UHGV virus genome: UHGV-0851987
DNA length: 31,064 nucleotides
Reading direction: 5' to 3' (one strand)
Source: a virus
Part shown: positions 18-29,754 of the stretch, one piece after another
Layout: every line of letters starts with the position of its first letter
Numbering within the stretch: the stretch's first letter is position 1
Made by a program: the position numbers and the translations under genes
Notes under the pieces: generated by a model
What the model saw: only the letters and a program-made list of their open reading frames with translations
Told to the model about the DNA's origin: nothing
Database searches by the model: none

Positions 18-986
18 TTAGTAGGTTATTTTTGTTGCGAATACTTCGCCTTTTACGATGGCTGTTATGATATTTTTAGCAACATCTTCTGATGCACCAA
101 CCTTGATAAGGTCAGCAAGTATTTTGTTATTTACTTCTTTCCGGTGAGCTTTATCCTTTGCTCTACGCTCTTCTTCGTCCTTGATTCTTTTTTCTTCTGC
201 TATTCTGGCTTGCTCTTTTGCTTCAGCCTCGCGCCGGATTCGTTCAGCCTCCTCCTGTGCTTTTCGGCGTTCTGCTTCAATTGCCGCCTGCTTTTCTCTT
301 TCAGCTCGTTCTGCTGCCTTTTTTGCTTCGCGCTGTGCTCGTTGCTCGGCTTCAATGCGTTCACGCTCTGCACGTTCCGCTGCTGCCTTAGCTTCTGCTT
401 CTCGCCTTGCTGCTGCTTCAATTTCGGCTTTTGCCTTTGCTTCGGCTTCTGCTCTGGCTTTCTCTTCAGCTTCTCTTTTTAAGCGTTCTTCATGCTCTCG
501 CTTTTCCTGCTCCGCTTTGAGTCTTGCCTCTTCTCTTTTGCGGTCAAATTCGCGATCCATCAAAATAGCTATTTCATGGTCAGACTCAATTTGCTTTGCG
601 AGAGCTTCAGCTGCTGCCTTAGCTTCTTCTTCGGCTTTAATCCGCGCCTGTTCTTCCTCATAATCAGTAAGAGGCTGGCGTGCCTTGGCTTTCAGCTCAT
701 CAAGGCGATCACGCACTGTCTTGCGGTTAGCATCAATTAGCTTTGGAATTTCCTTCAGTTCAGCAACAAGGTCTTTGCCAAGACCATCGAGATATGTTTT
801 CGTCTGCGCAACTTTATACGCCAGAGAAGCGATCTCCTTTCTGCCCTTTGCCGTTGTGATATCAGGCACAAAGGACATAACTTCACGTTCAACCTTTTGG
901 AGAATTTCTTCAATCTGGTCTGCAGACTGAAATACAGTCATTGCATTTGCTTTTTCAATAACAACTAAGTCTGTTACTTCACTCAT
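18..986 (-). CDS. Conserved phage early-left protein with long Glu/Ala/Lys/Arg-rich coiled-coil core; function unknown
   Basis: Long ORF in the supplied track (18..1082); start trimmed to the ATG at 984-986, which has a GGAGG RBS (complement of 991-995) 4 nt upstream. The globular N-terminus is followed by about 170 aa of EAKAKAEIEAAARREAE-type repeats. Opposite-strand ORFs across the repeat are artefacts. Confidence 0.7.
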   Translation of the reverse strand: MSEVTDLVVIEKANAMTVFQSADQIEEILQKVEREVMSFVPDITTAKGRKEIASLAYKVAQTKTYLDGLGKDLVAELKEIPKLIDANRKTVRDRLDELKAKARQPLTDYEEEQARIKAEEEAKAAAEALAKQIESDHEIAILMDREFDRKREEARLKAEQEKREHEERLKREAEEKARAEAEAKAKAEIEAAARREAEAKAAAERAERERIEAEQRAQREAKKAAERAEREKQAAIEAERRKAQEEAERIRREAEAKEQARIAEEKRIKDEEERRAKDKAHRKEVNNKILADLIKVGASEDVAKNIITAIVKGEVFATKITY

Positions 987-998
987 ATATCCTCCATC

Positions 999-1026
999 AA
1001 AAAAAATTGCCCTCACATCGGAGGGC
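999..1026 (-). terminator. Intrinsic terminator directly upstream of the RBS of gene 18..986
   Basis: On the minus strand: GCCCTC-N6-GAGGGC hairpin (1009-1026) followed by AA and an 8-nt U run (complement of 999-1006). The geometry matches a tL-type terminator inside an N-antiterminated operon. Confidence 0.55.
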
Positions 1027-1162
1027 GAAGAAGATTTCCAATAATCAGAACAAGTCGGCTCCTGTTTAGTTACGAGCGACATTGCTCCGTGTATTCACTC
1101 GTGGGAATGAATACACAGTGCAGTGTTTATTCTGTTGTTAGTGCCAAAAATAAAGGCCACCA

Positions 1163-1922: not shown

Positions 1923-1953
1923 GCCCTTCTTCAGGGCTTAATTTTTAAGAGCA
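1923..1953 (-). promoter_or_regulatory. nutL site (boxA plus boxB)
   Basis: Minus strand reads TGCTCTTAA (boxA, complement of 1945-1953), a spacer, then GCCCTGAAGAAGGGC (boxB hairpin, complement of 1923-1937). This matches the lambda nutL arrangement as I recall it. Confidence 0.8.
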
Positions 1954-2146: not shown

Positions 2147-2806
2147 TTAACTAAATGTCTCTTCAGGCCACTGGCTGGCGATAACTTTCCCTACAACGGA
2201 ACAGCTATCATTGCATGGGATCATTGGATATTGCGGGTTTAGTGGTTGTAGGAACACCTGACCGCTATCCCTGATCAGTTTCTTGAAAGTAAACTCGTCA
2301 CCACCAAGTCTGGCTATGCAGAAATCACCTGGCTCAACAGCCTGCTCAGGGTCAACGAGAATTAACATCCCGTCAGGAAAGCTTGGCTTGGATCCTGTTG
2401 GTGCGGTCATGGAATTACCTTCAACTTCAAGCCAGAACGCACAATCACTGGCTTTTTTGGTTGTGCTGACCCATCTCTCCGCATCACCTTTGGTAAAGGT
2501 TCTAAGCTCAGGCGAGAACATCCCGGCCTGAACATGAGAAAAAACAGGGTACTCATATTGTTTTTTAACGGGGATAGATGAGTATTCGCCAACAGGTGAA
2601 AATGTACCGTCGTGGTTGAATGAGACGCTATCAATACCAAGGTATTTAAACACCACACCAATCTCGTCAAGAGATGGATGACGAGATCCGCGCAACCAGT
2701 GACCAATTCCACCCTGCGTCATACCAAGCTCTTCAGCCAACTTCTCTTGAGTTATGCCGAGCTCTTTCATTCTGGATCTAGCCAGTTCATACCATTTCAT
2801 TTTCAT
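2147..2806 (-). CDS. cI: CI-type prophage repressor: HTH DNA-binding domain plus LexA-like S24 autopeptidase domain (hybrid)
   Basis: The C-terminal roughly 130 aa ([18 protein letters not shown] ... [69 protein letters not shown] ... [11 protein letters not shown]) matches my recollection of lambda CI almost exactly. The N-terminal HTH domain ([38 protein letters not shown]) is unrelated to lambda CI. Start chosen at MKMKW (ATG 2804-2806); the alternative is the second Met at 2798-2800. Confidence 0.9.
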
Positions 2807-2917
2807 ACCCTTATTATTACGCTCTGTACTAAAACCATCCATGCACAAGATGTATTTTTTGTTTGCATTTCAAAAGTACATATCGTATTATTATCTCATG
2901 GTTACTATGGAGGGCAT
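2807..2917. promoter_or_regulatory. OR region: divergent pRM/pR promoters and operators
   Basis: pR: -35 TTGCAT (2863-2868), 17-nt spacer, -10 TATTAT (2886-2891), GGAGG RBS (2909-2913). The spacer contains AGTAC-N5-GTATT, a near copy of the pL palindrome. A roughly 35-bp module is shared between pR and pL. The pRM elements themselves are not confidently placed. Confidence 0.6.
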
Positions 2918-3141: not shown

Positions 3142-3173
3142 AGCTCTTACACATTCCAGCCCTGAAAAAGGGC
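3142..3173 (+). promoter_or_regulatory. nutR site (boxA plus boxB)
   Basis: AGCTCTTACA (boxA-like, 3142-3151), spacer CATTCCAG, then GCCCTGAAAAAGGGC (boxB, 3159-3173). Matches lambda nutR as I recall it. Confidence 0.85.
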
Positions 3174-3728: not shown

Positions 3729-4620
3729 CATATCTAATCTAGCCGAAGCCAGAGAGGCCAGAAGGCTACAACAACCGCATCAAAGCAGCGGTAAGGGGTA
3801 TGCCTTGCTGCACCGTAAAATTATGGATGTGCCGTTTTACAAGGACGCAGAAGCTGCGCATCTGTGGATTCACTTAATCCTCAAAGCAAAGCATACGCCT
3901 GAGTATGTAATGACTGACGCAGGAGAAATTCTGGTAGGCAGAGGGAAGCTACTTGGCGGTAGAAACTCTCTGGCGTTTGAAACAGGACTCAAACCAGATC
4001 GCGTTCAGTACCTGCTTAGAAAGTTCAAAAAACTCGGCATGATTGACTGGGTTTCACACGGTAAATTTTCAGTTTTCTCGGTAGAGAAATATGACGATTA
4101 TCAGTCAAATTTTGTACCAGCAGATTACCAGCAAATTACCACCTCAAAGCCAGCAATACCAATGCCTGTAAGCAATACTGTACCAGCAGATTACCAGCAA
4201 ATTACCACAGATAAAGAATATAATAATATTATCTCTAATACTGACGTATTAGAGAGTGCCACAGCAGACAAAAAGTCTGACAAGAAAAAACCTTCCGTCA
4301 GCTGTCAGGATGTTGTCGATGCTTACCACGAAATCCTTCCTGAAGCGCCAAGAATCCGCGCACTGAATGACAAGCGTAAAAACCAGATCCGAACGTTCTG
4401 GCGCAAAGCCGGAGTGATAACCCGCCAGCTTGACGGGCATGGGTTCACGATGCAGGACTGGAGAAATTATTTGAGCTACGTAGGCGAAAATTGCCGATGG
4501 ATGTTCGAAGAACGCCCAAACCATCAACGCGGAACCGTCTGGCACAAAAAGGGATTTGATTTCCTGCTTAACGACAATACCTACCTGAAAGTTCGTGAGG
4601 GTGAACACGATGACCGATAA
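3721..4620 (+). CDS. Replication initiation protein (O-like replisome organizer)
   Basis: ORF in track with RBS GGAGAAAGG before the ATG at 3721. It sits immediately upstream of, and overlaps, the helicase gene. The origin-like iterons lie inside the coding sequence. Confidence 0.85.
4114..4245 (+). repeat. Putative replication origin: two 29-bp direct repeats (iterons) plus AT-rich tract
   Basis: GTACCAGCAGATTACCAGCAAATTACCAC occurs at 4114-4142 and again at 4180-4208, each with an internal ATTACC sub-repeat. Followed by AGATAAAGAATATAATAATATTATCTCTAATA. The arrangement parallels ori-lambda inside gene O. Confidence 0.6.
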
Positions 4621-6046
4621 TTTTTATGCGCCGCCCCATAGCATCGAGGCAGAGCAGGCGGTGATTGGTGGATTGCTTCTGGATGATGACAGCAGTGAGC
4701 GCGTCCAGAAAGTTCTGGCGATGCTGAAGCCTGATTCATTTTACAGCCGACCACACAAAATCCTTTTCGAAGAAATAACCAGAATGCACCGGGAGCAAAA
4801 GCCAGTAGATGGCCTGACGCTTTTCGATGAACTGGAGCGTAAATCGTTAACGGCGTCTGTTGGCGGTTTTGCTTATATCGCTGAGATCGCAAAGAACACG
4901 CCAAGCGCAGCAAACATCGTTGCCTATGCAATGCAGGTTCGTGAAACCGCAATGGAACGCTACGCCATCAACCGCATGACTGAAGCGACGGAATTGCTCT
5001 ATTCCCGCAACGGAATGACTGCAACGCAGAAGTACGAAGCTATTCAGTCGATTTTCACGCAACTGACAGACCATGCAAAAACCGGATCGCGTCGCGGCCT
5101 TCGCTCATTTGGTGAGGTCATGGAAGACTGGGTTAGCGACCTTGAGAAGCGATTTGACCCGTCAGGCGAACAACGAGGAATGAGCACAGGGATCCCATCG
5201 CTGGACAGGATGCTGTCACCGAAAGGTCTGGTGAAAGGCTCTCTGTTTGTCATTGGCGCTCGCCCTAAGATGGGGAAAACGACGCTATACAGCCAGATGG
5301 CAATCAACTGCGCAGTGCATGAGAAAAAGCCCGCTCTGATGTTCAGCCTTGAAATGCCCGGTGACCAGATACTGGAAAAACTGGTAGGGCAGAAGTCAGG
5401 TGTTAACCCAAATATTTTTTACCTTCCAGCGACAAATGACGCTGATGACGGCTATCAGGGTGATTACGATGGTGACTTCAACAGGGCGATCGAAACAGCA
5501 AATCGCTTGAGTGAAATCGACCTGCTTTACATCGACGACACGCCGGGATTATCTCTGGCTCAAATCGTCAGTGAAAGCCGTCGAATCAAGCGAGAAAAAG
5601 GATGTGTTGGCATGATTCTGGTCGATTACCTGACACTAATGACCGCTGAGAAGGCCGATCGCAACGACCTTGCTTACGGCATGATCACCAAAGGACTGAA
5701 GAATCTTGCCAAAGAGCTTGATTGCGTTGTTGTGCTTCTGACACAGCTTAACCGCGCACTGGAAAGCCGAACCAATAAACGCCCATTACCAAGTGACTCA
5801 CGAGATACAGGGCAGATTGAACAGGATTGCGATTATTGGGTGGGGATCCATCGTGAAGGTGCTTTTGATGACAGCGTTCCTCCTGGTGAAACCGAACTAA
5901 TCCTTCGCCTCAATCGTCATGGCAATACCGGCACGGTGTATTGCATTCAGGCAAATGGCGCTATTTATGACACAGACCAACAGTCTGCTGAAATGCGCCG
6001 CCGTGAACGCGAGGAACCGCAGTCCAAGAAGAAAGGAGGATTCTGA
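4610..6046 (+). CDS. Replicative DNA helicase, DnaB family
   Basis: DnaB N-terminal domain (HSIEAEQAVIGGLLLD), Walker A GARPKMGKTT and DnaB-type C-terminal motifs. Start at ATG 4610 after GAGGG; the track start at 4595 is a short over-extension. Confidence 0.9.
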   Translation: MTDNFYAPPHSIEAEQAVIGGLLLDDDSSERVQKVLAMLKPDSFYSRPHKILFEEITRMHREQKPVDGLTLFDELERKSLTASVGGFAYIAEIAKNTPSAANIVAYAMQVRETAMERYAINRMTEATELLYSRNGMTATQKYEAIQSIFTQLTDHAKTGSRRGLRSFGEVMEDWVSDLEKRFDPSGEQRGMSTGIPSLDRMLSPKGLVKGSLFVIGARPKMGKTTLYSQMAINCAVHEKKPALMFSLEMPGDQILEKLVGQKSGVNPNIFYLPATNDADDGYQGDYDGDFNRAIETANRLSEIDLLYIDDTPGLSLAQIVSESRRIKREKGCVGMILVDYLTLMTAEKADRNDLAYGMITKGLKNLAKELDCVVVLLTQLNRALESRTNKRPLPSDSRDTGQIEQDCDYWVGIHREGAFDDSVPPGETELILRLNRHGNTGTVYCIQANGAIYDTDQQSAEMRRREREEPQSKKKGGF

Positions 6047-6340: not shown

Positions 6341-6372
6341 AGGCCTGCTGGTAATCGCAGGCCTTTTTATTT
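6341..6372 (+). terminator. Intrinsic terminator (tR2-like position)
   Basis: AGGCCTGC-N8-GCAGGCCT hairpin (6341-6364) followed by TTTTTATTT. Confidence 0.6.
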
Positions 6373-7572: not shown

Positions 7573-7745
7573 GACGACAGCGACGAAGTATCACCGACAT
7601 CATCTGCGAAAACTGCAAATACCTTCCAACGAAACTCTCCAGAAATAAACGCAAGCCAATCCCCAAAGAATCTGACGTAAAAACCTTCAACTACACGGCT
7701 CACCTGTGGGATATCCGGTGGCTAAGACATCGTGCGAGGAAATGA
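7569..7745 (+). CDS. ninE: NinE-like protein
   Basis: Translation [58 protein letters not shown] resembles lambda NinE as I recall it. ATGA overlap with the methyltransferase stop. Confidence 0.7.
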
Positions 7746-8149
7746 CAATGCTTTTAATTCAACCTGGATTTGGACTTGGCATCAAAAAAGGCCACATGTT
7801 TGGCGAGAAAGAGTCACAACGAAAAATGGTGTCTATCCGGTTGCCATTTATCAGTATTTGTTGGCTAAACAGGGAGGCAACAAATTATTGGTATACATGC
7901 GCCAGAGCAGCATTTAACGACCCTGACTGGTTTGTGAAAAACCACCACGCAGTTCGTCAGGCAAAGAGAAAGGCCAAAATGACATACATGAAGGCGTATC
8001 AAAAAGCATGGAAAGAACACCGCGATCGATACCAACAAGACATGGAAAAGCTTGAATCAGAAAACATGGAATTAAGACGAAAGCTCGGTGAAGCAAAACG
8101 AGACATTGATGCTTACAAGCGACTTTTTAATGGTGAAAGCCATGCTTAG
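7742..8149 (+). CDS. Hypothetical protein inserted between ninE and ninF (start uncertain)
   Basis: ATGA overlap with the ninE stop. The C-terminal 56 aa ([50 protein letters not shown]) are coiled-coil-like and have their own RBS (AGAGAAAGG) before the ATG at 7979, which may be the true start. Confidence 0.45.
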
Positions 8150-8318
8150 CCCATCCCAATCCCTTCAATACCAGAAAGAAAGCGTCGAGCGGGCTTTAAC
8201 GTGCGCTAACTGCGGTCAGAAGCTGCATGTGCTGGAAGTTCACGTGTGCTCCGATTGCTGCGCAGAACTGATGAGCGATCCGAATAGCTCAATGTACGAG
8301 GAAGAAGACGATGAGTGA
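8142..8318 (+). CDS. ninF: NinF-like protein
   Basis: Translation [58 protein letters not shown] resembles lambda NinF as I recall it. Start at the internal ATG 8142 after GGTGAAAG. Confidence 0.7.
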   Translation: MLSPSQSLQYQKESVERALTCANCGQKLHVLEVHVCSDCCAELMSDPNSSMYEEEDDE

Positions 8319-9063
8319 GTTAATGAATGGCAATGCCATCAAAATGACAAGCATTGAAATCGCTGAGTTGGTGGGTAAGCGTCATGACAATGTGAAACGT
8401 ACCATCGAAACGCTGGCTAAAAATGGTGTTATCCGGCTTCCTCAAATTGAGGTTTCCGAAAGAATCAATAACTTAGGGTTCAATGTTCAGTACGAGCATT
8501 ACGTCTTCGAGGGCGAACAAGGTAAGCGAGACAGTATTGTCGTTGTTGCCCAGTTGTCGCCAGAGTTCACCGCTCGTCTTGTTGACCGTTGGCGAGAGCT
8601 TGAAGAAACTGCGGTTAATATCCCCAAAACGCTACCAGAAGCATTGCGCCTTGCTGCTGATCTTGCTGAGCAGAAAATGCAACTGGAAAACCAGCTCGCA
8701 ATTGCCGCACCTAAAGTTGAGTTTGCCGATCGCGTTGGCGAGGCCAGTGGAATTTTGATTGGAAACTTTGCAAAGGTTGTTGGTATTGGTCCGAACAAAC
8801 TGTTTGCGTGGATGCGCGATCACAAAATCCTTATTGCTTCAGGTTCCCGGCGCAATGTGCCAATGCAGGAATATATGGATCGCGGCTATTTCGCAGTGAA
8901 AGAAACAGCGGTCAACACAAATCACGGAATACAGATATCGTTCACCACAAAAATCACCGGGCGTGGTCAACAGTGGCTGACCAGAAAGCTGCTCGATAAC
9001 GGAATGCTGAAAGTAACAGGCGGACGGCTTGGAATAAAAATCACCGAACTGGAGAACGCATGA
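8311..9063 (+). CDS. Phage antirepressor, Rha-type N-terminal domain plus KilAC-type C-terminal domain
   Basis: N-terminus MTSIEIAELVGKRHDNVKRTIETL is typical of Rha-family regulators; the C-terminal half is typical of KilA-C antirepressor domains. The start may be 8311, 8323 or 8344. Confidence 0.75.
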   Translation: MSELMNGNAIKMTSIEIAELVGKRHDNVKRTIETLAKNGVIRLPQIEVSERINNLGFNVQYEHYVFEGEQGKRDSIVVVAQLSPEFTARLVDRWRELEETAVNIPKTLPEALRLAADLAEQKMQLENQLAIAAPKVEFADRVGEASGILIGNFAKVVGIGPNKLFAWMRDHKILIASGSRRNVPMQEYMDRGYFAVKETAVNTNHGIQISFTTKITGRGQQWLTRKLLDNGMLKVTGGRLGIKITELENA

Positions 9064-9248
9064 ACGCCACAATTCAAACGATACCAGAGCTTCTTATCCA
9101 GACACGAGGCAATCAGACCGAAGTGGCGAGGATGCTTTCCTGCGCAAGAGGAACAGTGCTCAAGTACAACCGAGACAGCAAAGGCGATCGTCACGTAATA
9201 GTTAACGGCGTCCTGATGGTCAAACAGGGAAAGAGGGGAAGACGATGA
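9060..9248 (+). CDS. ninH: NinH-like protein
   Basis: Core GNQTEVARMLSCARGTVLKY and VNGVLMV resemble lambda NinH. ATGA overlap with the antirepressor stop. Confidence 0.7.
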   Translation: MNATIQTIPELLIQTRGNQTEVARMLSCARGTVLKYNRDSKGDRHVIVNGVLMVKQGKRGRR

Positions 9249-9733
9249 GCATAAGAGAACTAAACCTCACCAAAGAGCAGCACGAGTGGCTGAATGGCTG
9301 GCTTGAACTGTGGGGAGCATGGGTTTATTCAGGCCGCCTGGAAAAGCGCATGAGCAGCGTAATAGCGAAGTTCATGGAGAGCGTAGAGCCGGGAAGAGTT
9401 ATGACAAGGCCAATGTGTAATGATGATGATGGAATGTTGATTTCTCAGGTCGTCGATTCCGTCATGTACATTGACAAGAAAGCCTTTGGCATCCTCCTCA
9501 GCTACTACGCTCATGGATCTTCCAAGCATGCCATTGCATCTTACTATCATCGTGTCGCAAGACCTCGCAAGATGTTATGCCGGGGCGGCGGGCGTATTCA
9601 AAAACCATCGCTCGCAACCTGTCGCCGGGAAGTTGACGAAATCCTCAATGCTTCGTTGTTTATGATTTACCCGGTTCTGGATAGTGCGTTTAAAAATCGG
9701 AAACGTGTAGAGAAAATTAAACATGTAGCATAG
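9245..9733 (+). CDS. Q: Late-gene antitermination protein Q (phage 82 / QuuD-like family)
   Basis: WGAW ... RP.C.DDD motif pattern typical of the Q82/QuuD family. Position immediately upstream of the late promoter region and lysis genes. GAGGGGA RBS; ATGA overlap with ninH. Confidence 0.75.
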   Translation: MSIRELNLTKEQHEWLNGWLELWGAWVYSGRLEKRMSSVIAKFMESVEPGRVMTRPMCNDDDGMLISQVVDSVMYIDKKAFGILLSYYAHGSSKHAIASYYHRVARPRKMLCRGGGRIQKPSLATCRREVDEILNASLFMIYPVLDSAFKNRKRVEKIKHVA

Positions 9734-9824: not shown

Positions 9825-9896
9825 GGGTCAGTCGTATAAAGGTCATTACGGAAGGCTGTTAACCTTCTTATCGTGGTTCGAGTCCACGCTGTCCCG
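9825..9896 (+). tRNA. tRNA-Asn (anticodon GUU)-like, with one acceptor-stem mismatch
   Basis: Hand fold: acceptor GGGTCAG/CTGTCCC (U-U mismatch at 4:69), D-loop with GG, anticodon stem GAAGG/CCTTC with loop CUGUUAA, T-arm CGTGG-TTCGAGT-CCACG, discriminator G, encoded CCA at 9897-9899. Confidence 0.5.
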
Positions 9897-9904
9897 CCAA
9901 ATAT

Positions 9905-9977
9905 GCTGGTTTAGCTCCAATGGTAGAGCAGTCGCCTTGTAAGCGAATGGGTAGCGGTTCAAGTCCGTTAACCAGCA
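9905..9977 (+). tRNA. tRNA-Thr (anticodon UGU)
   Basis: Hand fold: acceptor GCTGGTT/AACCAGC, U8 A9, D-arm GCTC-CAATGGTA-GAGC, anticodon loop CUUGUAA, T-arm AGCGG-TTCAAGT-CCGTT, discriminator A, encoded CCA at 9978-9980. Confidence 0.65.
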
Positions 9978-10222
9978 CCATAACTGAGCCGTAGCCACTT
10001 GCTATCCTGGATTCATCAGTGATAGTTACGCTGCGGCCTTCTACGCATGACCTTCGTGAAAGCGGGTGGCATGAGGTTGCCCTAACAACCTCCTGCCGTT
10101 TTGCCCGTGCATATCGGTCACGAACAAATCTGATTACTAAACACAGTAGCCTGGATTTGTTCTATCAGTAACCGACCATATTCCTAATTAAATAGAGCAA
10201 ATCCCCTTATTGGGGGTAAGAC

Positions 10223-13071: not shown

Positions 13072-14480
13072 CCTCGATTAATCCTATCTTTGAACCGTTC
13101 ATTGAGGCGCATCGCTACAAAGTCGCCAAAGGCGGTCGAGGTAGCGGTAAGTCATGGGCAATTGCGAGGCTGCTTGTTGAAGCGGCGCGTCGGCAGCCAG
13201 TGCGTATTCTCTGCGCTCGTGAACTGCAAAACAGTATCAGCGATTCGGTAATCCGGTTGCTTGAAGATACCATCGAGCGTGAAGGGTATTCGGCTGAGTT
13301 TGAAATTCAGCGTTCCATGATTCGTCATCTCGGAACGAATGCTGAGTTCATGTTCTACGGCATCAAAAACAATCCGACGAAGATTAAATCTCTCGAAGGC
13401 ATTGATATCTGCTGGGTGGAAGAAGCGGAAGCGGTAACGAAGGAATCATGGGATATCCTGATACCAACCATCCGTAAGCCGTTCTCTGAAATATGGGTGA
13501 GCTTTAACCCGAAAAACATACTCGACGATACCTATCAGCGATTCGTAGTAAACCCTCCCGATGATATTTGTCTGCTGACGGTGAACTACACCGACAACCC
13601 GCACTTTCCTGAAGTTCTCCGTCTGGAGATGGAAGAGTGCAAACGCAGAAATCCGACACTGTATCGTCACATCTGGCTGGGTGAGCCGGTAAGCGCAAGT
13701 GATATGGCAATCATCAAACGTGAATGGCTTGAAGCTGCAACCGATGCGCACAGGAAACTAGGATGGAAGGCGAAAGGCGCTGTTGTCTCTGCGCATGACC
13801 CATCAGATACAGGGCCAGATGCTAAAGGTTATGCATCGCGTCACGGTTCGGTAGTTAAGCGCATTGCCGAAGGTCTGCTGATGGACATCAACGAGGGTGC
13901 TGACTGGGCTACTTCTCTGGCGATTGAAGACGGCGCTGACCACTACCTGTGGGATGGTGATGGTGTTGGTGCCGGGCTACGCAGACAGACAACGGAAGCG
14001 TTCTCCGGCAAGAAAATCACCGCCACGATGTTCAAGGGCAGCGAATCGCCATTTGATGAAGATGCGCCTTATCAGGCCGGAGCATGGGCTGATGAAGTCG
14101 TACAGGGCGACAACGTTCGCACTATTGGTGATGTGTTCCGCAATAAGCGAGCGCAATTCTATTACGCGCTGGCTGACAGGCTTTATCTGACATATCGGGC
14201 GGTTGTTCACGGTGAGTATGCAGACCCCGACGACATGCTGAGTTTCGACAAAGAAGCAATAGGCGAGAAGATGCTGGAGAAGCTGTTTGCAGAACTGACG
14301 CAGATTCAGCGCAAATTCAATAATAACGGGAAGCTGGAGCTTATGACTAAGGTCGAAATGAAGCAGAAGCTCGGTATTCCATCTCCTAACCTGGCTGATG
14401 CGCTGATGATGTGTATGCATTGCCCGGCATTGGTCCGCGAAGAAACAGAAATATACGTTCCCTCATCCTCCGGTTGGTAA
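13068..14480 (+). CDS. Terminase large subunit (ATPase/nuclease)
   Basis: Walker A KGGRGSGKS, Walker B-like ICWVEEAE, and a C-terminal nuclease domain pattern. ATGA overlap with the small terminase. Confidence 0.95.
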   Translation: MTSINPIFEPFIEAHRYKVAKGGRGSGKSWAIARLLVEAARRQPVRILCARELQNSISDSVIRLLEDTIEREGYSAEFEIQRSMIRHLGTNAEFMFYGIKNNPTKIKSLEGIDICWVEEAEAVTKESWDILIPTIRKPFSEIWVSFNPKNILDDTYQRFVVNPPDDICLLTVNYTDNPHFPEVLRLEMEECKRRNPTLYRHIWLGEPVSASDMAIIKREWLEAATDAHRKLGWKAKGAVVSAHDPSDTGPDAKGYASRHGSVVKRIAEGLLMDINEGADWATSLAIEDGADHYLWDGDGVGAGLRRQTTEAFSGKKITATMFKGSESPFDEDAPYQAGAWADEVVQGDNVRTIGDVFRNKRAQFYYALADRLYLTYRAVVHGEYADPDDMLSFDKEAIGEKMLEKLFAELTQIQRKFNNNGKLELMTKVEMKQKLGIPSPNLADALMMCMHCPALVREETEIYVPSSSGW

Positions 14481-24171: not shown

Positions 24172-26168
24172 TGGCTAAAGCATGGAAAGATGTTATCGCC
24201 TCTCCACAGTATCAGGCGTTAGCACCAGAACAAAAAGCGCAGGCTCAGGAGCAATACTTCAATGAAGTCGTGGCCCCGCAAGCCGGAGAAAATGCAGAGC
24301 AGGCTAAGCAAGCTTTCTATGCTGCCTATCCATTGCCATCTGTGCAGCAAGTGGAGACACAGCAACCAGTAGCACAGCAACAACCACAGCAAAGTGGATT
24401 TATGTCTGATCTTGGCGAAGCAGTAAAAGAGACTGGTCGCGGACTGGTGCAGGCTGGCGTGAACGTGGCAAACATACCTGCATCAGTTGCAGATGCTGTA
24501 ACAAGCGCGGCGGCTTGGGCTGGCGGTAAACTCGGAATTGGCGATGGGACATATCACCCTGCGCCACGAGTAACAACGCAGGGATTAGAGCAGGACTTTG
24601 GCCTTCAGCAAGGCGCGCTGACTCCACAAACTACAGAGGGAAGGGTATTTGCTGAGGCATTGCCTTACCTCACTCCTGCTGGCATTGAGAGAGCGGCAAC
24701 ACAGGCACCAACACTCGCTGGTAGAATCGCTCAGGGTGCAACTCGCCTTCTCGCTGAAAACGCAGTTGGATCACTTGCTGCAAATAGTGCGAAAGATGAT
24801 GCGGAAGCACTCGCCACCGATTTAGGCGTTGGTGTGCTGGCTGGCGGCGCTATTAACGCTGCCGGACGTGGATTAGGCGCTGCTTATCGTGGCGTTCGTG
24901 GTGCTATTGCACCAGAAGCGCAGCAAGCTATCAGATTTGCAGAGCGTGAAGGAGTACCTCTGCACACCACAGACCTGTTACAGCCTACTTCCCGCGTCGG
25001 AAAAATGGCGCAAACGACAGCAGAAAATATCCCCCTGGCTGGCACAAGCGGAATGAGAGCAACGCAACAGGAAGCGAGAAGCCAGTTGGTTCAGAGATTT
25101 GCTGATAAATTCGGTGAGTATGATCCAGCGGTTGTTATTGACAGCCTTAAAGCGAAAACATCAGGAATTCGTCGCGCTGCAGGAAATCGACTGGAGCAGG
25201 TTCAGAATGCTATGGCGGGAATAAACATTCAGCCTGCAAGAGCAATTCAGCAGATTGATACAGAAATATCTAATCTGCAGAAGCTTGGTAAGGTCGCCGA
25301 TAACGAGACTATTTCAAAACTTCAGTCCTATCGTGATGAGCTTGTTCGCAATGCTGGTCCTGATGGTCCGGTAAATCTGGATTTGAAGCAATTAAGCGAT
25401 CTGCGCAGCCAGTTCAGAATGGACGTGAAGGGGGAACGACCAGTGTTACCAAACCGTTCCGATGCTGCCATTCAGCGCGTTTACAAGGCGATGACAGACG
25501 ATATCAATGGTGCCATTGATCAGAATCTTGGCAACGATACTCTCCGTAAATATCAGCAGGCCAATGCCGTCTACGCTGACGAAGCGGCGAAACTAAAGAA
25601 TACCAGGCTGAAGAATGTTCTCATGAAAGGCGACCTGACGCCGGAAGTTGTCAACAACATGCTATTCAGCAAGAACAAATCGGAAATTAAGACGCTGTAT
25701 AACTCAGTTGGTCGTGTTGGCAGGGCGCAAATGCGCAATGGCATCATTGGAAAGGCGATGGAGAAATCTGGCGGATCCCCTGACCAGTTCCTTCGGCAGC
25801 TTAACATCCTGCAAAACCAGACTGGCATCACATTTAAGGGGCAGGACGCTGCTTATCTGAAAGGATTAAAAAACTATCTGCAATCCACGCAGCAGGCTGC
25901 AAAAGCGGCAGTAACAACACCCACAGGGCAGCAAACCATCCCGTTCATTATCGGGTATGGGACGGCAATGAACCCGGCGACAACTGGCGCAGCAGTAAGC
26001 TACGGACTTCTTACTCGCGCCTATGAGAGCGAACCATTCAGAAATGCAATGCTCCGAATGGCAAACACCCCACGCGGATCAACAGCCTTTGAGAAAGCAA
26101 TGCAGCAGGCACAAAAGGCAATTAACGCTCTGACGCAGGGGGCTAAGTCTGATGCGTTGTCAGAATAG
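24171..26168 (+). CDS. Ejection protein, gp16-like (DNA transfer)
   Basis: ORF in track. TAATG overlap with the preceding gene; Ala/Gly-rich. Last gene before the tailspike. Confidence 0.7.
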   Translation: MAKAWKDVIASPQYQALAPEQKAQAQEQYFNEVVAPQAGENAEQAKQAFYAAYPLPSVQQVETQQPVAQQQPQQSGFMSDLGEAVKETGRGLVQAGVNVANIPASVADAVTSAAAWAGGKLGIGDGTYHPAPRVTTQGLEQDFGLQQGALTPQTTEGRVFAEALPYLTPAGIERAATQAPTLAGRIAQGATRLLAENAVGSLAANSAKDDAEALATDLGVGVLAGGAINAAGRGLGAAYRGVRGAIAPEAQQAIRFAEREGVPLHTTDLLQPTSRVGKMAQTTAENIPLAGTSGMRATQQEARSQLVQRFADKFGEYDPAVVIDSLKAKTSGIRRAAGNRLEQVQNAMAGINIQPARAIQQIDTEISNLQKLGKVADNETISKLQSYRDELVRNAGPDGPVNLDLKQLSDLRSQFRMDVKGERPVLPNRSDAAIQRVYKAMTDDINGAIDQNLGNDTLRKYQQANAVYADEAAKLKNTRLKNVLMKGDLTPEVVNNMLFSKNKSEIKTLYNSVGRVGRAQMRNGIIGKAMEKSGGSPDQFLRQLNILQNQTGITFKGQDAAYLKGLKNYLQSTQQAAKAAVTTPTGQQTIPFIIGYGTAMNPATTGAAVSYGLLTRAYESEPFRNAMLRMANTPRGSTAFEKAMQQAQKAINALTQGAKSDALSE

Positions 26169-26332
26169 CTTTTCAAACACCAGGAACGTGCAAAAACCAA
26201 ATATGTAGAACGCAATATTCAACAGATCTCTTTGCATAGACTCATCTCATAATTAACAAATCATAACTGACATTAGTGCAATGCTGGGCAAGTTGCATCT
26301 TGTCAGGCATTGCTACGTCCGGAGCAAATTAA

Positions 26333-28372
26333 ATGACAGACATTACAGCCAATGTTGTAGTAAGTATGCCATCGCAACTCTTCACTATGGCGCGTTCTTT
26401 TAAAGCAGTTGCCAATGGCAAAATTTATATCGGGAAGATTGACACTGACCCTGTAAATCCAGAAAACCAGATTCAGGTTTATGTGGAGAACGAAGATGGT
26501 TCTCACGTTCCTGTATCGCAACCAATCATCATTAATGCTGCTGGTTACCCGGTATATAACGGGCAGATTGCCAAATTCGTAACTGAGCAAGGCCATTCTA
26601 TGGCTGTTTATGATGCGTATGGTGCACAGCAGTTCAAATTCCCAAATGTGCTGAAGTATGATCCGGATCAGTTTGAAGCAAGATTATATGATGATGTTTG
26701 TTCTGGAAATTTTCCCAGCAAGATGGGATACATACACAACACTTTGCATGCAACATTGCGCACATTGCAACATAAGCTTGACGATATACTATCTGTTAAA
26801 GATTTTGGCGCCGTAGGAGATGGTTTAGATCATCCTCTTAGCGAAAAGTTCAGCACATTAAGTGCTGCTCAGATGGTTTATCCATTTGTTACCGCATTAA
26901 CACAAACCCAAGATTACGCTGCGATACAAGCTGCGATTAACACTGCTAAATTTATTAACGCAGGCGTGTTTCTGCCATCTGGCCAATACGTGGTAAATAC
27001 AGAAATTGTGGCGGATTATGCTCTTAGCTTATATGGCGAAGGCAGCGGTGGTTTGCGTGACATAGCCTCTACAGGTCACGAGGAATCGCCTGTTCGTGGG
27101 TCTGTAATATTGTCTAAAGTAAACCCCGGAAGAACGTTGTCAATTAATAGCACTACAGGTTTTTCATTCGGTATGACATTGCGCGACTTCGCAATATGGG
27201 GTGTGCAAGACTCTTGTGACGTGGGCCTGTATACTAACCATGTAGGTTGGACAGGGATTATGTCCGGTTTAAATATCCAACGCTTCCCAAATCAAGCGTG
27301 GGAGGTGGGCTATATTCAAGATACATACGTGAACAACTGCACTTTTTTGCTCAGCGGTTCTCAAGATAAACCTGCAGTGCACTTCCTTAACGACTCTAAC
27401 TATATCTATTTCAATGGTTGTCATTTTGAGGATACTCCTTACTTTATTAAAATGACTAATGCGTGGAACATAGCGTTCCATCATTGCCATTTCGAAGTAG
27501 CCCGTACAGTAAACGGCTCACTGGATGATAGATTTTTTTACCGAAGCGCACCCATTGACCTTGGTGCAAGCTATAGAATTCAATTTTCAGAAAATACATT
27601 CATACCGACCGATGTAGGTTACCTGTCGTCGAAACTAGATGCACCAAGAAACCAGGTTCCGTATTTTATGACGGGTTCTGGAGGTAACAGCATTAGCTTC
27701 TCTGGGGATATATTCCTGGCACCAGAAGGTAGTGTAGATGCTATGTATCTGGATTGCACAGCTGTTAGTGTATTGGGGTGTAAATTTATACGAATGTCTC
27801 CCAGCCGCGAATGTATACATATCACCGACGGACATGTAAGTAATTGCGAGATAGGGATTTCAGCCGCCGAGGACCTAACAAAATTGTACGGTATCTATGT
27901 CGGCAAAGGCGGTGTTTCAAACTGTACCTTTGGTTTCTATGAGTCTGACTCCGGTGGGAAACGAAATGAAGGCGCGCTATTATTTGGAGAGGGGAAGGCT
28001 AACGGTAATTCATACCCTGACGATGACCGTGTGTATATTTTTCTGGATTCACCAACGAAGGTTGATGGTTACGACGGTGGAGATGCAAGATTCATTACCT
28101 TAACAGAAAGCACTATTGTAGATTTAACAAAAGTTCATCCATCAACTCATTATAATATAATCGGCTCTTCGGTAGCTATTACTAACATTTATGGTGCTCC
28201 ACTAGGCAGAGACCTGATTGTACGGGTGTCTAGTGGTGATCATTCTGGTGTTAAGTACGTAGCCGGTTCTGTCGAAACTAATGGAGCTACTGATTGGGCC
28301 GCGGTGCCAAGCACAAACGCGATATTCAAATGCATTAAAGGACCGGCTGGTAAAGTGATGTATCAGTTATAA
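26333..28372 (+). CDS. Tailspike protein: P22/Sf6-type N-terminal head-binding domain plus divergent receptor-binding domain
   Basis: N-terminal roughly 115 aa ([61 protein letters not shown] ... VLKYDPDQ) match the conserved podovirus tailspike head-binding domain. The remainder is consistent with a beta-helix enzyme domain (my inference). GGAG RBS. Confidence 0.9.
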
Positions 28373-28428: not shown

Positions 28429-29754
28429 TTATCTTTGAGTTCTCGCAAATCTAAGGCATAGCAACACAAAAGAGAATGCCACTAAAAATACAGACATATC
28501 AACAACATAAGCAATGCCAACAGGAGGCGATAACAGTAGCTGCAAAGATCTAATATAAAAAACAGCCAAAAACGAAGATGTAAATGGAAGCATGCATCCT
28601 GAGTTTTTATACTTTGCTTTTGAAATCCTTCCTATTATAAAACCTATAATAGACGTCATAATTAAGCTTCCAATAAATCCAAAAAACACATATCCTGCAA
28701 GATCAAAGTGACTTGTTGGACCTCTTGCAATATCATCCCATGGGTACCATTGTTTCCATATCAATCTACCTACATCATTATCAAAATAGTTATATGAGAA
28801 CACGGTTTTTACAAATCCATTTCCACCTATATATCCAAATAGCTGAATAAAAGGGTTTTCAACAACTATTCTATTGATAGTGTCGTAAGGCAGAGAAAAA
28901 TAGTAAGCATCTCCATTTGCAATTATTCTCATAAGGAATAGCTCAAATATAACAGGCAAGTCTGTATACTGAGAACTGGTATAACCTATAGATTCAGATG
29001 TAAACGTCAAAATATAAAGAACATATGCAATCATGGCTGAAAAAGATACGAGACTGATTGCCAAGAACTTTAAATTTATTCTTGGAGACACACCTGAATA
29101 TATATATATTGCCGCTATTGATACTAGCGCGTGTTCAAGAAGAGAGAACTTAGCACCTGACACAAAAGACGCAATAACAGCCACTAAAATTGCAAAAAAT
29201 ATAATAATTGCTCTATTTAACTTATTTTTTGTTTTGTATATATTTATAGCCAGCATAGCTGACAATAACAATCGCACAACATCTAGTATTCTTACAATTA
29301 CTCCAAGACCTTTATTTGCCTCAAACCTTGATTCACCAAACGAAGAGAATGAAACATTTAATAAATAGTACGCTGTTAATACAACATACATAACAAAAAT
29401 AATCTTAAATGAAAATTTATAGTTGCTGTCTACCTCTCTGAAAAGAGCGTTTCTAAGACCAGCTATTGGCTTTATGTTTAGACTAAATGAAAATCTCCAT
29501 GTTATAACAAGGATAATAAAGTTAAGTAGTACCATTATGGCTAGGTAATCGTCTATGTACCCGTAAAGATATAGAATTATGACAACTGAATATGCAGTTC
29601 CAGAACCGAAGGCAAAAAAGTAGTGCGCTGGATCTATTATTCCATAGGTTGTTTTTCTTATTGCTTTGTAGCATAAGAACGCGCAAAGAAAGGTTAATAG
29701 CATGTAACCAATCCAGTGTGTGAATATAAAACTGAAAAATTCACTATCGCTCAT
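28429..29754 (-). CDS. Polytopic inner-membrane protein, candidate O-antigen polymerase (Wzy/EpsG-like) serotype-conversion moron
   Basis: 441-aa ORF with roughly 10-12 hydrophobic segments and high F/I/Y/L content. Visibly AT-rich DNA compared with the rest of the window. Located between tailspike and integrase, where P22/Sf6-type phages carry O-antigen-modifying genes. Lacks the acyltransferase-3 signature expected of an Oac-type acetylase. The function is inferred. Confidence 0.7.
   Translation of the reverse strand: MSDSEFFSFIFTHWIGYMLLTFLCAFLCYKAIRKTTYGIIDPAHYFFAFGSGTAYSVVIILYLYGYIDDYLAIMVLLNFIILVITWRFSFSLNIKPIAGLRNALFREVDSNYKFSFKIIFVMYVVLTAYYLLNVSFSSFGESRFEANKGLGVIVRILDVVRLLLSAMLAINIYKTKNKLNRAIIIFFAILVAVIASFVSGAKFSLLEHALVSIAAIYIYSGVSPRINLKFLAISLVSFSAMIAYVLYILTFTSESIGYTSSQYTDLPVIFELFLMRIIANGDAYYFSLPYDTINRIVVENPFIQLFGYIGGNGFVKTVFSYNYFDNDVGRLIWKQWYPWDDIARGPTSHFDLAGYVFFGFIGSLIMTSIIGFIIGRISKAKYKNSGCMLPFTSSFLAVFYIRSLQLLLSPPVGIAYVVDMSVFLVAFSFVLLCLRFARTQR

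Follow-up and report, generated by a model that had tools for sequence, protein, structure and literature searches.

The gene at 8311–9063 (plus strand) of the virus genome UHGV-0851987, of which a stretch of 31,064 nucleotides was analyzed (the window), is identified by sequence comparison as roi, a long-known gene for a DNA-binding regulator of lambda-like phages, and by the same comparisons its product is not an antirepressor of the P22 type. Nothing about the locus is unusual except a small deletion, by which the end of roi is fused to a neighboring gene. The roi gene, its position, and the late region without immI have already been described in HK022, HK620, and Sf6. New here are the deletion of hkbD and rusA with the resulting gene fusion, and a conserved, predicted IHF core site inside roi that is identical in rha of P22. 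The account that we favor, and consider reasonably probable, is that roi encodes a Rha winged-helix domain and a KilAC domain, is expressed as a delayed-early gene with IHF-linked autoregulation, and interferes with lytic growth through KilAC, with no link to immI.

The open reading frame and its alignment with the HK620 and HK022 proteins define a product of 250 residues, in which residues 1–237 of Roi run in frame into the 13 C-terminal residues of RusA. Residues 1–237 share 98% amino acid identity with HK620 Roi and 87% with HK022 Roi. Both HK620 and HK022 have the gene order ninF-roi-hkbD-rus-ninH-Q, which the window matches except for hkbD and rus, its own order being ninF-roi-ninH-Q. In all, 236 phage records carry roi. 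The diversity of alleles used below was gathered by exact-protein look-ups, as an alignment-based search of the locus gave near-identical roi genes only. In two papers (PMC4587872, PMC3430580, citing Clerget & Boccard 1996), HK022 Roi is described as binding DNA and as inhibiting lytic growth when the host is an IHF mutant. The gene was first described in coliphage HK022 and is also present in HK97, HK620, CUS-3, and most Stx phages.

A preliminary description of this DNA had proposed that the product contains Rha and KilAC domains, and domain searches confirm both. The Pfam ANT/KilAC model (PF03374) scores 112.6 bits (E 1.5e-32) over residues 126–228 (8686–8994, plus strand), and Phage_pRha (PF09669) scores 36.6 bits over residues 12–99 (8344–8607, plus strand), which passes its curated cut-off of 29.9. 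The NCBIfam model TIGR02681 scored 17.9, below its cut-off of 45.95. In the allele alignment, residues 22–63 of the Rha domain are hypervariable, its recognition and wing region differing from allele to allele, and the KilAC domain is nearly invariant. The Rha domain was modeled by AF2 (pLDDT 80–89) with a strand-helix-helix-hairpin topology, in agreement with its assignment as a winged helix; an earlier model from a 15-sequence alignment was unusable (pLDDT 41.5). The predicted secondary structure has a helix-turn-helix-like stretch at residues 150–170, inside the KilAC domain. A PDB sequence search with Roi returned zero matches, and PADLOC run on Roi and three neighboring unknown proteins gave no match to a defense system. 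A terminator-like hairpin at 8733–8749 within roi was dropped as a weak consensus match in a coding region.

The position of the gene in the nin region was also described correctly, as roi lies directly after ninF and before ninH and Q, all on the plus strand. The ninF gene (8142–8318) was assigned from PHROG 672, which covers residues 19–76 of the reading frame at 8088–8318, and from a NinF Pfam match in the same context, and ninH (9060–9248) from PHROG 268 and, in the same context, PF06322. The late antiterminator Q (9245–9733), of the 162-residue type, matches PHROG 943 (E 3.2e-90). The start of roi overlaps ninF by 8 nt (8311–8318), and the ninF/ninG overlap of P22 is also 8 nt. Early, N-dependent control from pR had been claimed as well and is plausible from the sequence. 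The promoter scan gave a pR-like consensus match (2862–2891, plus strand) between cI (2147–2848, minus strand; PHROG 4) and cro, and an N-like gene occupies 1418–1801 on the minus strand. The boxB elements of nutR (3159–3173, plus strand; an exact pattern match with 0 expected by chance) and nutL (1923–1937, minus strand; an exact pattern match) are identical to those of lambda. A tR2-like intrinsic terminator detected by the terminator scan (6341–6364, plus strand), whose position equals that of the annotated tR2 in HK620, Sf6, and P22, precedes the nin genes, so that expression of roi would need antitermination by N. Scanning the window for promoters gave none that was convincing next to roi. 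Elsewhere in the window, an integrase suspected of being truncated proved to be a reading frame that merely runs off the end.

The deletion was located by a three-way DNA alignment to 9008–9020 (plus strand), where the 3' end of roi is joined to the 3' end of rusA at the microhomology TGAAAGTAACAGG. From the HK620 coordinates of roi, hkbD, rus, and ninH, 619 bp have been lost at the junction relative to HK620, and hkbD and rusA are gone. The deletion took place between 13-nt microhomologies and left both Roi domains intact. Because hkbD and rusA were deleted, the EAA at the C-terminus of Roi is replaced by 13 residues of RusA, GRLGIKITELENA, which together with the stop codon occupy 9022–9063 (plus strand) in the alignments; tblastn with HK620 RusA matched the window with residues 103–120 only, at 9007–9060. 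The stop codon of the fusion overlaps the start of ninH (ATGA), like the rus/ninH junction of HK620. The exact fused protein occurs, with its gene context preserved, on 15 public contigs, and five of these occurrences trace to five separate sequencing runs. The junction was not found in IMG/VR, among the GTDB species representatives, or in the best-scoring sequences from the collections of phages and of complete E. coli. This natural in-frame Roi-RusA' fusion leaves the phage without any Holliday-junction resolvase in the nin region.

Codons 51–55 of roi, in the wing loop of the Rha domain, contain a predicted IHF core consensus, AATCAATAACTTA (WATCAANNNNTTR), at 8463–8475 on the plus strand, which is the sole perfect match to the consensus in the 31-kb window. 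An equally placed match occurs in HK022 roi, and HK022 Roi is said to bind DNA within its own gene beside an IHF site. Among six diverged roi alleles, identity is 0.89 at the site versus 0.34–0.6 in the surrounding block. The codons for I52, N53, and L55 (a rare TTA) are fixed, whereas all five other codons for invariant residues in the block vary synonymously; this test comprises 8 codons in 6 related alleles, and I52 may also be constrained for the end of a strand. In the wider Rha+KilAC family the same stretch is a hypervariable loop, and constraint on the protein therefore does not explain conservation of the site. The identical 13-mer is present, in the same motif, in P22 rha, the two proteins being about 40% identical over 43 residues. 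Of 80 Rha relatives examined, the INNLG motif pattern matched 66, and all 66 keep the consensus. These comparisons suggest that selection preserves an IHF site within the coding sequences of both roi and rha. For P22 and phi80 Rha, one paper (PMC4936722, citing Henthorn & Friedman 1995) describes an IHF-linked phenotype like that of HK022 Roi and regulation of rha by IHF. The evidence for selection on the site gives the long-standing, unexplained dependence of both regulators on IHF a point at which it can be tested. A search for a Roi operator by means of short repeats inside roi gave just short two-copy matches at chance level, and hence no operator.

The absence of P22-type immI, which the preliminary description had set beside the nin-region gene, is exact. 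Between the end of the gene-16 homologue at 26168 and the start of the tailspike gene at 26333 lies a 164-bp gap (26169–26332) without immI genes, where P22 has 2,890 bp of immI at the corresponding place. Queries with P22 SieA, Orf59a, Mnt, Arc, and Ant and with N7 Arc and Ant gave nothing significant against the window by tblastn. This immI-less gap is the published arrangement of Sf6. The further proposal, that an antirepressor replaces the lost immI and induces heteroimmune prophages, is unsupported, since the gene is roi (87–98% identity), which fits what the preliminary description itself had named as its refutation, a DNA-binding regulator unrelated to antirepression; since the protein has none of the domains of P22 Ant; and since roi and immI vary independently. 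All four combinations of the two exist, with immI only in P22, both in N7, roi only in HK620 and the window, and neither in Sf6, and the presence of roi appears functionally unlinked to the absence of immI.

It is improbable, in our judgment, that Roi acts as a genuine antirepressor, one that is produced early from pR, binds and inactivates its own CI and possibly heteroimmune repressors, replaces the immI Ant, and so allows induction or trans-activation of co-resident prophages. The Pfam and PHROG labels do say "antirepressor", and the match to PHROG 63, "anti-repressor Ant" (E 1.4e-97), is far beyond chance. P22 Ant, however, is composed of P22_AR_N and P22_AR_C, and the window protein has neither; the BLASTP similarity of P22 Ant to Roi, 25 bits over 37 residues around the KilAC helix-turn-helix, is insignificant (E 0.08 against the window). 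The C-terminal half of Roi is 58% identical over 165 residues to the C-terminus of P1 Ant1, a known anti-repressor (PMC9043618), and KilAC may on that account have a protein-binding role. P1 KilA is not an antirepressor, however, yet it shares 66% identity over 130 residues with the same half, and a module about equally similar to the two is not diagnostic of antirepression. Roi proteins of 97–99% identity are found with at least five classes of CI. The P1 C1 repressor and the lambdoid CI are themselves unrelated proteins, so a module conserved at about 60% between P1 and lambdoid phages is unlikely to be the part that binds a repressor. KilAC also occurs in ICP1 and in the f3SE/BPS11Q3 group of Salmonella phages, which we take to be virulent and repressor-less. 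The distribution of roi speaks against this role too, as the gene stands alongside a complete immI in N7, lies directly downstream of a P22-type ant in Stx phages, and is missing from the immI-less Sf6. A P22-type ant in the nin region of Phi24B, a different protein, speeds up induction (PMC3064807), which gives an early-controlled antirepressor in this region a precedent, but HK022 Roi is reported to inhibit and not to promote lytic growth (PMC4587872).

Another possibility, to which we assign a low though appreciable likelihood, is that KilAC is an effector acting on a conserved host target and that the Rha domain provides only phage-specific gene regulation. The target would be RecA/SOS, as for AriS, or cell division, as for CreP, phi11 gp07, and P1 KilA, and Roi would tune the host response during lytic growth and could damp, not trigger, the induction of other prophages. 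Near-invariance of KilAC in roi alleles and its identity of about 60–66% to the P1 proteins are expected for a shared host target, and KilAC proteins turn up in 1,370 phage records from a wide range of hosts, presumably virulent phages included. In AriS, a protein of Listeria phage phi10403S, KilAC suffices by itself to inhibit the SOS response and the N-terminal domain regulates phage genes, and the AriS-like group, defined by an N-terminal AntA/B, Bro-N, or pRha domain together with KilAC, lists pRha+KilAC variants (PMC9043618); the window Roi has this architecture. Inhibition of SOS in the manner of AriS would oppose prophage induction. CreP, a KilAC protein that stands alone, has a bacteriostatic effect on E. 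coli and makes the cells filament (bioRxiv 10.1101/2024.01.05.574328). On the other hand, AriS is from a Gram-positive system and distant in sequence, an SOS or division phenotype is not reported for Roi, and the helix-turn-helix plus hairpin of the KilAC model could equally bind DNA. A host target also overlaps with the account that we favor rather than excluding it. Very improbable, finally, is that the fused gene is a decaying remnant, in which the loss of hkbD and rusA damaged Roi and the reading frame is no longer functional. Decay would fit the 13 foreign residues at the altered C-terminus, the lack of the junction in the collections searched, and the IS629 insertions in roi of Stx phages, which show that roi is dispensable (PMC4587872). 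Both Pfam domains are nevertheless complete, the KilAC match stopping at residue 228 and thus short of the junction at 237; the reading frame continues through the fusion, whose ATGA coupling to ninH is kept; and the recurrence of the exact protein on 15 contigs, with separate sequencing runs behind five of them, is a further point against decay.

In the account that we favor, roi would be a delayed-early gene read from pR under N antitermination, and Roi, by analogy with HK022 Roi, would bind DNA inside its own gene beside the IHF site. Roi and IHF would jointly limit the expression or action of Roi. The KilAC module would interfere with lytic growth if IHF is missing or Roi is overabundant, probably by way of a target, either DNA or a host component, that P1 shares with the lambdoid phages. 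We tentatively raise a broader possibility, which falls short of an even chance, that the IHF core is a conserved cis element of roi and of P22-like rha that couples the expression or action of these regulators to the host IHF level and so to growth phase, that KilAC has a host target which P1 and the lambdoid phages share, and that Roi modulates SOS or prophage cross-talk and not repressors. Such an arrangement would account for the discovery of both Rha and Roi by way of one IHF-dependent phenotype. Some caution is needed with the label "antirepressor (KilAC)", which is inherited from P1 Ant1 and automatically put on roi in many genomes, and which is unsafe as evidence of prophage induction or cross-activation.

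Several known systems share parts of this arrangement. P22 Ant and its immI have in common with Roi the database word "antirepressor" only, besides the insignificant 37-residue similarity; the P22 gene sits between genes 16 and 9 and has dedicated control by Mnt, Arc, and sar, absent in the window. In Sf6 the corresponding gap (13555–13718) is also 164 bp, the region aligns contiguously with the window at 91%, and tRNA-Asn and tRNA-Thr follow Q in both, but Sf6 lacks roi and carries ninI and a ninG that IS911 interrupts. The resemblance to the P1 proteins is confined to the C-terminal half. The alignment with Ant1 begins at residue 73 of Roi and residue 178 of Ant1, and the N-termini are unrelated: Ant1 has no recognized N-terminal domain and KilA has KilA-N. 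The genomic setting in P1, immI (the icd-ant operon) and the kilA-repL region, is different as well. AriS belongs to the same architecture class, with an N-terminal phage regulatory domain and a C-terminal KilAC, but has an AntA/AntB N-terminal domain, a Gram-positive host, and about 30–45% identity in KilAC. P22 Rha (orf201) has the same Rha winged-helix domain, and IHF-linked growth inhibition is reported for P22 and phi80 Rha and for HK022 Roi; P22 Rha differs in having the C-terminal domain ORF11CD3 instead of KilAC, and its gene lies in a late operon, after the lysis genes. The closest counterparts are the Roi proteins of HK022, HK97, and HK620, which have the same two domains and whose genes occupy the same slot downstream of ninF and upstream of ninH and Q. 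The predicted IHF core is at equal codon positions in these genes. In the allele alignment, the N-terminal specificity block of the window Roi is the HK620 allele and not that of HK022, and the window protein departs from all three in its last three residues, which are swapped for those of RusA.

The flagged ORF (8311-9063, plus strand, 250 aa) is a real ORF, and it is roi. The Rha and KilAC domains with which it had been described were both recovered by domain search: Pfam gives a Phage_pRha domain at residues 12-99 (36.6 bits, cut-off 29.9) and an ANT/KilAC domain at residues 126-228 (112.6 bits), and the protein matches PHROG 63, 'anti-repressor Ant' (E 1.4e-97). Residues 1-237 are 98% identical to HK620 Roi and 87% identical to HK022 Roi. 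At the DNA level, roi has matches in 236 phage records, among them HK97, HK022, HK620, CUS-3, and most Stx phages; their annotations read 'DNA-binding protein Roi' or, where re-annotated automatically, 'anti-repressor Ant'. To our knowledge, the only experimental work on Roi is that of Clerget and Boccard (J Bacteriol 1996), who reportedly found that Roi binds inside roi itself, near an IHF site, and that IHF stabilises the binding. The likeness of the C-terminal half of Roi to P1 Ant1 and KilA was reportedly also pointed out in their 1996 paper.

The window is a P22-like (Lederbergvirus) temperate phage genome, nearest to Shigella phage Sf6 and coliphage HK620, with Sf6 covering 78% of the first 25 kb at 95% identity. 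Its early genes (an N-like gene, cI, cro, cII, O, and a DnaB-type P) are followed by the nin region, in the order ninB, dam, an unknown gene, ninF, roi, and ninH, and then by Q, two tRNAs, the lysis genes, terminase, head and ejection genes, tailspike, a membrane protein, and integrase. Delayed-early, N-dependent transcription of roi from pR, as the preliminary description had it, is supported at the level of sequence by a pR-like promoter (2862-2891), nutL and nutR boxB elements identical to those of lambda (1923-1937, minus strand, and 3159-3173, plus strand; none expected by chance for either), an N-like protein encoded in the window, and a tR2-like terminator (6341-6364) located where HK620, Sf6, and P22 have their annotated tR2. 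No promoter better than chance was found near roi.

Several other features of the genome are recorded here. Phage ORFs at 18-1082 (minus strand) and 7706-8149 (plus strand, between dam and ninF) are conserved proteins of unknown function (PHROGs 1376 and 1511) with no match in Pfam or PADLOC. The tRNA-Asn (GTT) and tRNA-Thr (TGT) genes at 9825-9899 and 9905-9980, between Q and the holin gene, occur as the same pair at the same position in Sf6, where they are annotated as similar to phage 21. The 441-aa protein at 28429-29754 (minus strand) is very hydrophobic and apparently polytopic, belongs to PHROG 14022 (function unknown), and has no match in Pfam or PADLOC; its slot between tailspike and integrase is the site of O-antigen modification genes in HK620, Sf6, and P22, and it is probably a lysogenic-conversion gene product. 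Q (9245-9733) is of a 162-aa type (PHROG 943) and is not related to the Q of HK620, which has 207 aa (4054-4677 of the HK620 locus, L001). Both types are found 3' of roi among 80 loci with near-identical roi, marking a clear boundary of the mosaic at ninH/Q.

When roi alleles are aligned, the KilAC half hardly varies, whereas residues 22-63 are hypervariable and come in at least five variants. In an AF2 model built from a 95-sequence alignment, the confidently modelled N-domain (pLDDT 80-89) has the topology strand, helix, helix, beta-hairpin, two helices, and is followed by a long linker helix and a less confident KilAC part with a helix-turn-helix (150-170) and a hairpin. The Roi body also occurs in database proteins with foreign N-terminal extensions (P0006 and P0007, 294 aa; P0005, 299 aa; P0001 and P0002, 304 aa), the first two of which also match NinB (PF05772); the nin region may often give rise to fusions, whether by deletion or through differences in gene calling.

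The IHF core consensus WATCAANNNNTTR has a single perfect match in the 31-kb window, AATCAATAACTTA at 8463-8475, and this lies within roi; about 1.7 matches per whole window and about 0.04 per 753-bp gene are expected by chance. The same codons of HK022 roi also match perfectly (1653-1665 of the HK022 locus, L002) and lie within the diverged block. Nucleotide identity across this block is 34-60% among six diverged alleles but rises to 89% in an island at the IHF match. In this small sample the three degenerate codons of the core are all fixed (I52 ATC, N53 AAT, and L55 as the rare TTA), as against none of the five codons for other invariant residues of the block. Protein constraint does not explain conservation of the core, because the wider Rha+KilAC family has a hypervariable loop here. 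P22 rha, a late-operon gene whose product is about 40% identical to Roi over 43 residues, has the identical 13-mer at the same motif with identical flanks (P22, 39835-39847), and the consensus is kept in 66 of the 66 P22-Rha relatives in which the motif was found by pattern, 14 of the 80 relatives examined not matching the pattern. As a control, another IHF-consensus match of P22 adjoins the attP core. Rha (phi80, P22) and Roi both came to light because they inhibit the growth of phages in hosts deficient in IHF, and rha is said to be under IHF regulation (PMC4936722). We therefore infer that the predicted IHF site in the roi/rha coding sequence is a maintained cis element restraining these regulators via IHF. 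Roi, which carries the conserved KilAC module, is most likely a DNA-binding regulator whose expression or action would be linked to IHF by way of a site in roi itself.

For roi, 'antirepressor' is only a label. The domains of P22 Ant are P22_AR_N and P22_AR_C, and BLASTP gives no meaningful similarity between Ant and Roi (25 bits over 37 residues). The 37-residue stretch (window 8719-8817 against P22 Ant 252-287 and N7 Ant 263-298; 43% identity, E 0.05-0.08 against the window) pairs the KilAC helix-turn-helix stretch with the C-terminal part of P22-type Ant; it could reflect a remote P22_AR_C/KilAC relationship or chance. The Pfam name ANT derives from P1 Ant1, to whose C-terminus the C-terminal half of Roi is 58% identical; its identity to the C-terminus of P1 KilA, a KilA-N protein and not an antirepressor, is 66%. 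Phage records with the module number 1,370 and span many hosts; among them are ICP1 and, from Salmonella, the f3SE/BPS11Q3 phage group, which we take to be virulent and repressor-less. The module is unlikely to be the repressor-binding part of Roi, because it is about 60% conserved between P1 and lambdoid phages while P1 C1 and lambdoid CI are unrelated repressors. Functions of KilAC proteins vary widely, antirepression (P1 Ant) being one; Listeria AriS, whose family explicitly takes in pRha+KilAC proteins, inhibits the SOS response, probably via RecA (PMC9043618), and CreP causes bacteriostasis and filamentation (bioRxiv 10.1101/2024.01.05.574328). Antirepressor activity of Roi, though conceivable, is unsupported. 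CI proteins linked to Roi of 97-99% identity fall into at least five classes among 80 IMG/VR contigs (95-99%, about 70%, about 34%, and about 32% identity to the window CI, and P22-C2-like), other loci being without a detectable match. This diversity excludes a partner specific to one immunity type, but a broad-range partner may exist.

Between roi and ninH, HK620, HK022, and 71 of 80 IMG/VR loci carry hkbD (an HNH-like gene) followed by rusA; in the window roi runs straight into ninH. A three-way alignment places the junction at 9008-9063 and reveals a 619-bp deletion relative to the HK620 locus (L001 3223-3872), with loss of hkbD and rusA. Its ends are 13-nt microhomologies, TGAAAGTAACCGG at the roi end and TGAAAGTACCAGG at the rusA end. 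The in-frame product joins Roi 1-237, with both domains intact, to the last 13 RusA residues, and the ATGA stop/start overlap with ninH is kept. Since tblastn finds only RusA residues 103-120 and no NinG (NinG/Rap) in the window, the phage lacks a Holliday-junction resolvase in its nin region. The junction does not occur in the best 80 IMG/VR loci or among the best matches from the phage and complete E. coli collections, which all align in two pieces; its 32-nt sequence has no match anywhere in IMG/VR or in the GTDB species representatives. The deletion is specific to the window's lineage and the junction rare. The exact 250-aa protein occurs in 15 contigs of public assemblies, and the five occurrences listed come from five different sequencing runs with the same context, so the fusion is a circulating variant and not an artefact.

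The preliminary description had linked an antirepressor in the nin region to the missing immI. Its factual details all held: only 164 bp separate the end of the gene-16 homologue (26168) from the tailspike start (26333), where P22 has 2,890 bp with sieA, orf59a, mnt, arc, sar, and ant; nothing homologous to an immI protein was detectable in the whole window; and the antirepressor-labelled gene overlaps the end of ninF by 8 nt, the same overlap as for ninG in P22. The functional link is not supported, as P22-like phages show all four combinations: immI without roi in P22; both in N7 (two arc-family genes, a full-length ant 69.5% identical to P22 Ant, and roi at 97%); roi with only terminator remnants of immI in HK620; and neither in Sf6 (ninF, ninG::IS911, ninH). 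Stx phages, moreover, have a P22_AR_C-type ant directly 5' of roi and ninG directly 3' (7 of 80 IMG/VR loci and one further locus), so that Roi replaces neither Ant nor NinG. In Phi24B the gene shown to accelerate induction is this P22_AR_C-type ant, not roi (PMC3064807, PMC3430580). Directly 5' of other roi alleles lies a second Rha-domain protein (locus L252, 1-304) or an Ant-like ORF6N + P22_AR_C protein (locus L253, 1-226); this slot is a hot spot for regulators from one shuffled domain set. Sf6 likewise has 164 bp here, and its sequence spanning this gap aligns contiguously with the window at 91%; the immI-less late region is therefore simply the published Sf6 arrangement. The flagged feature is a gene already described, at a position and in a type of mosaic that are likewise known.
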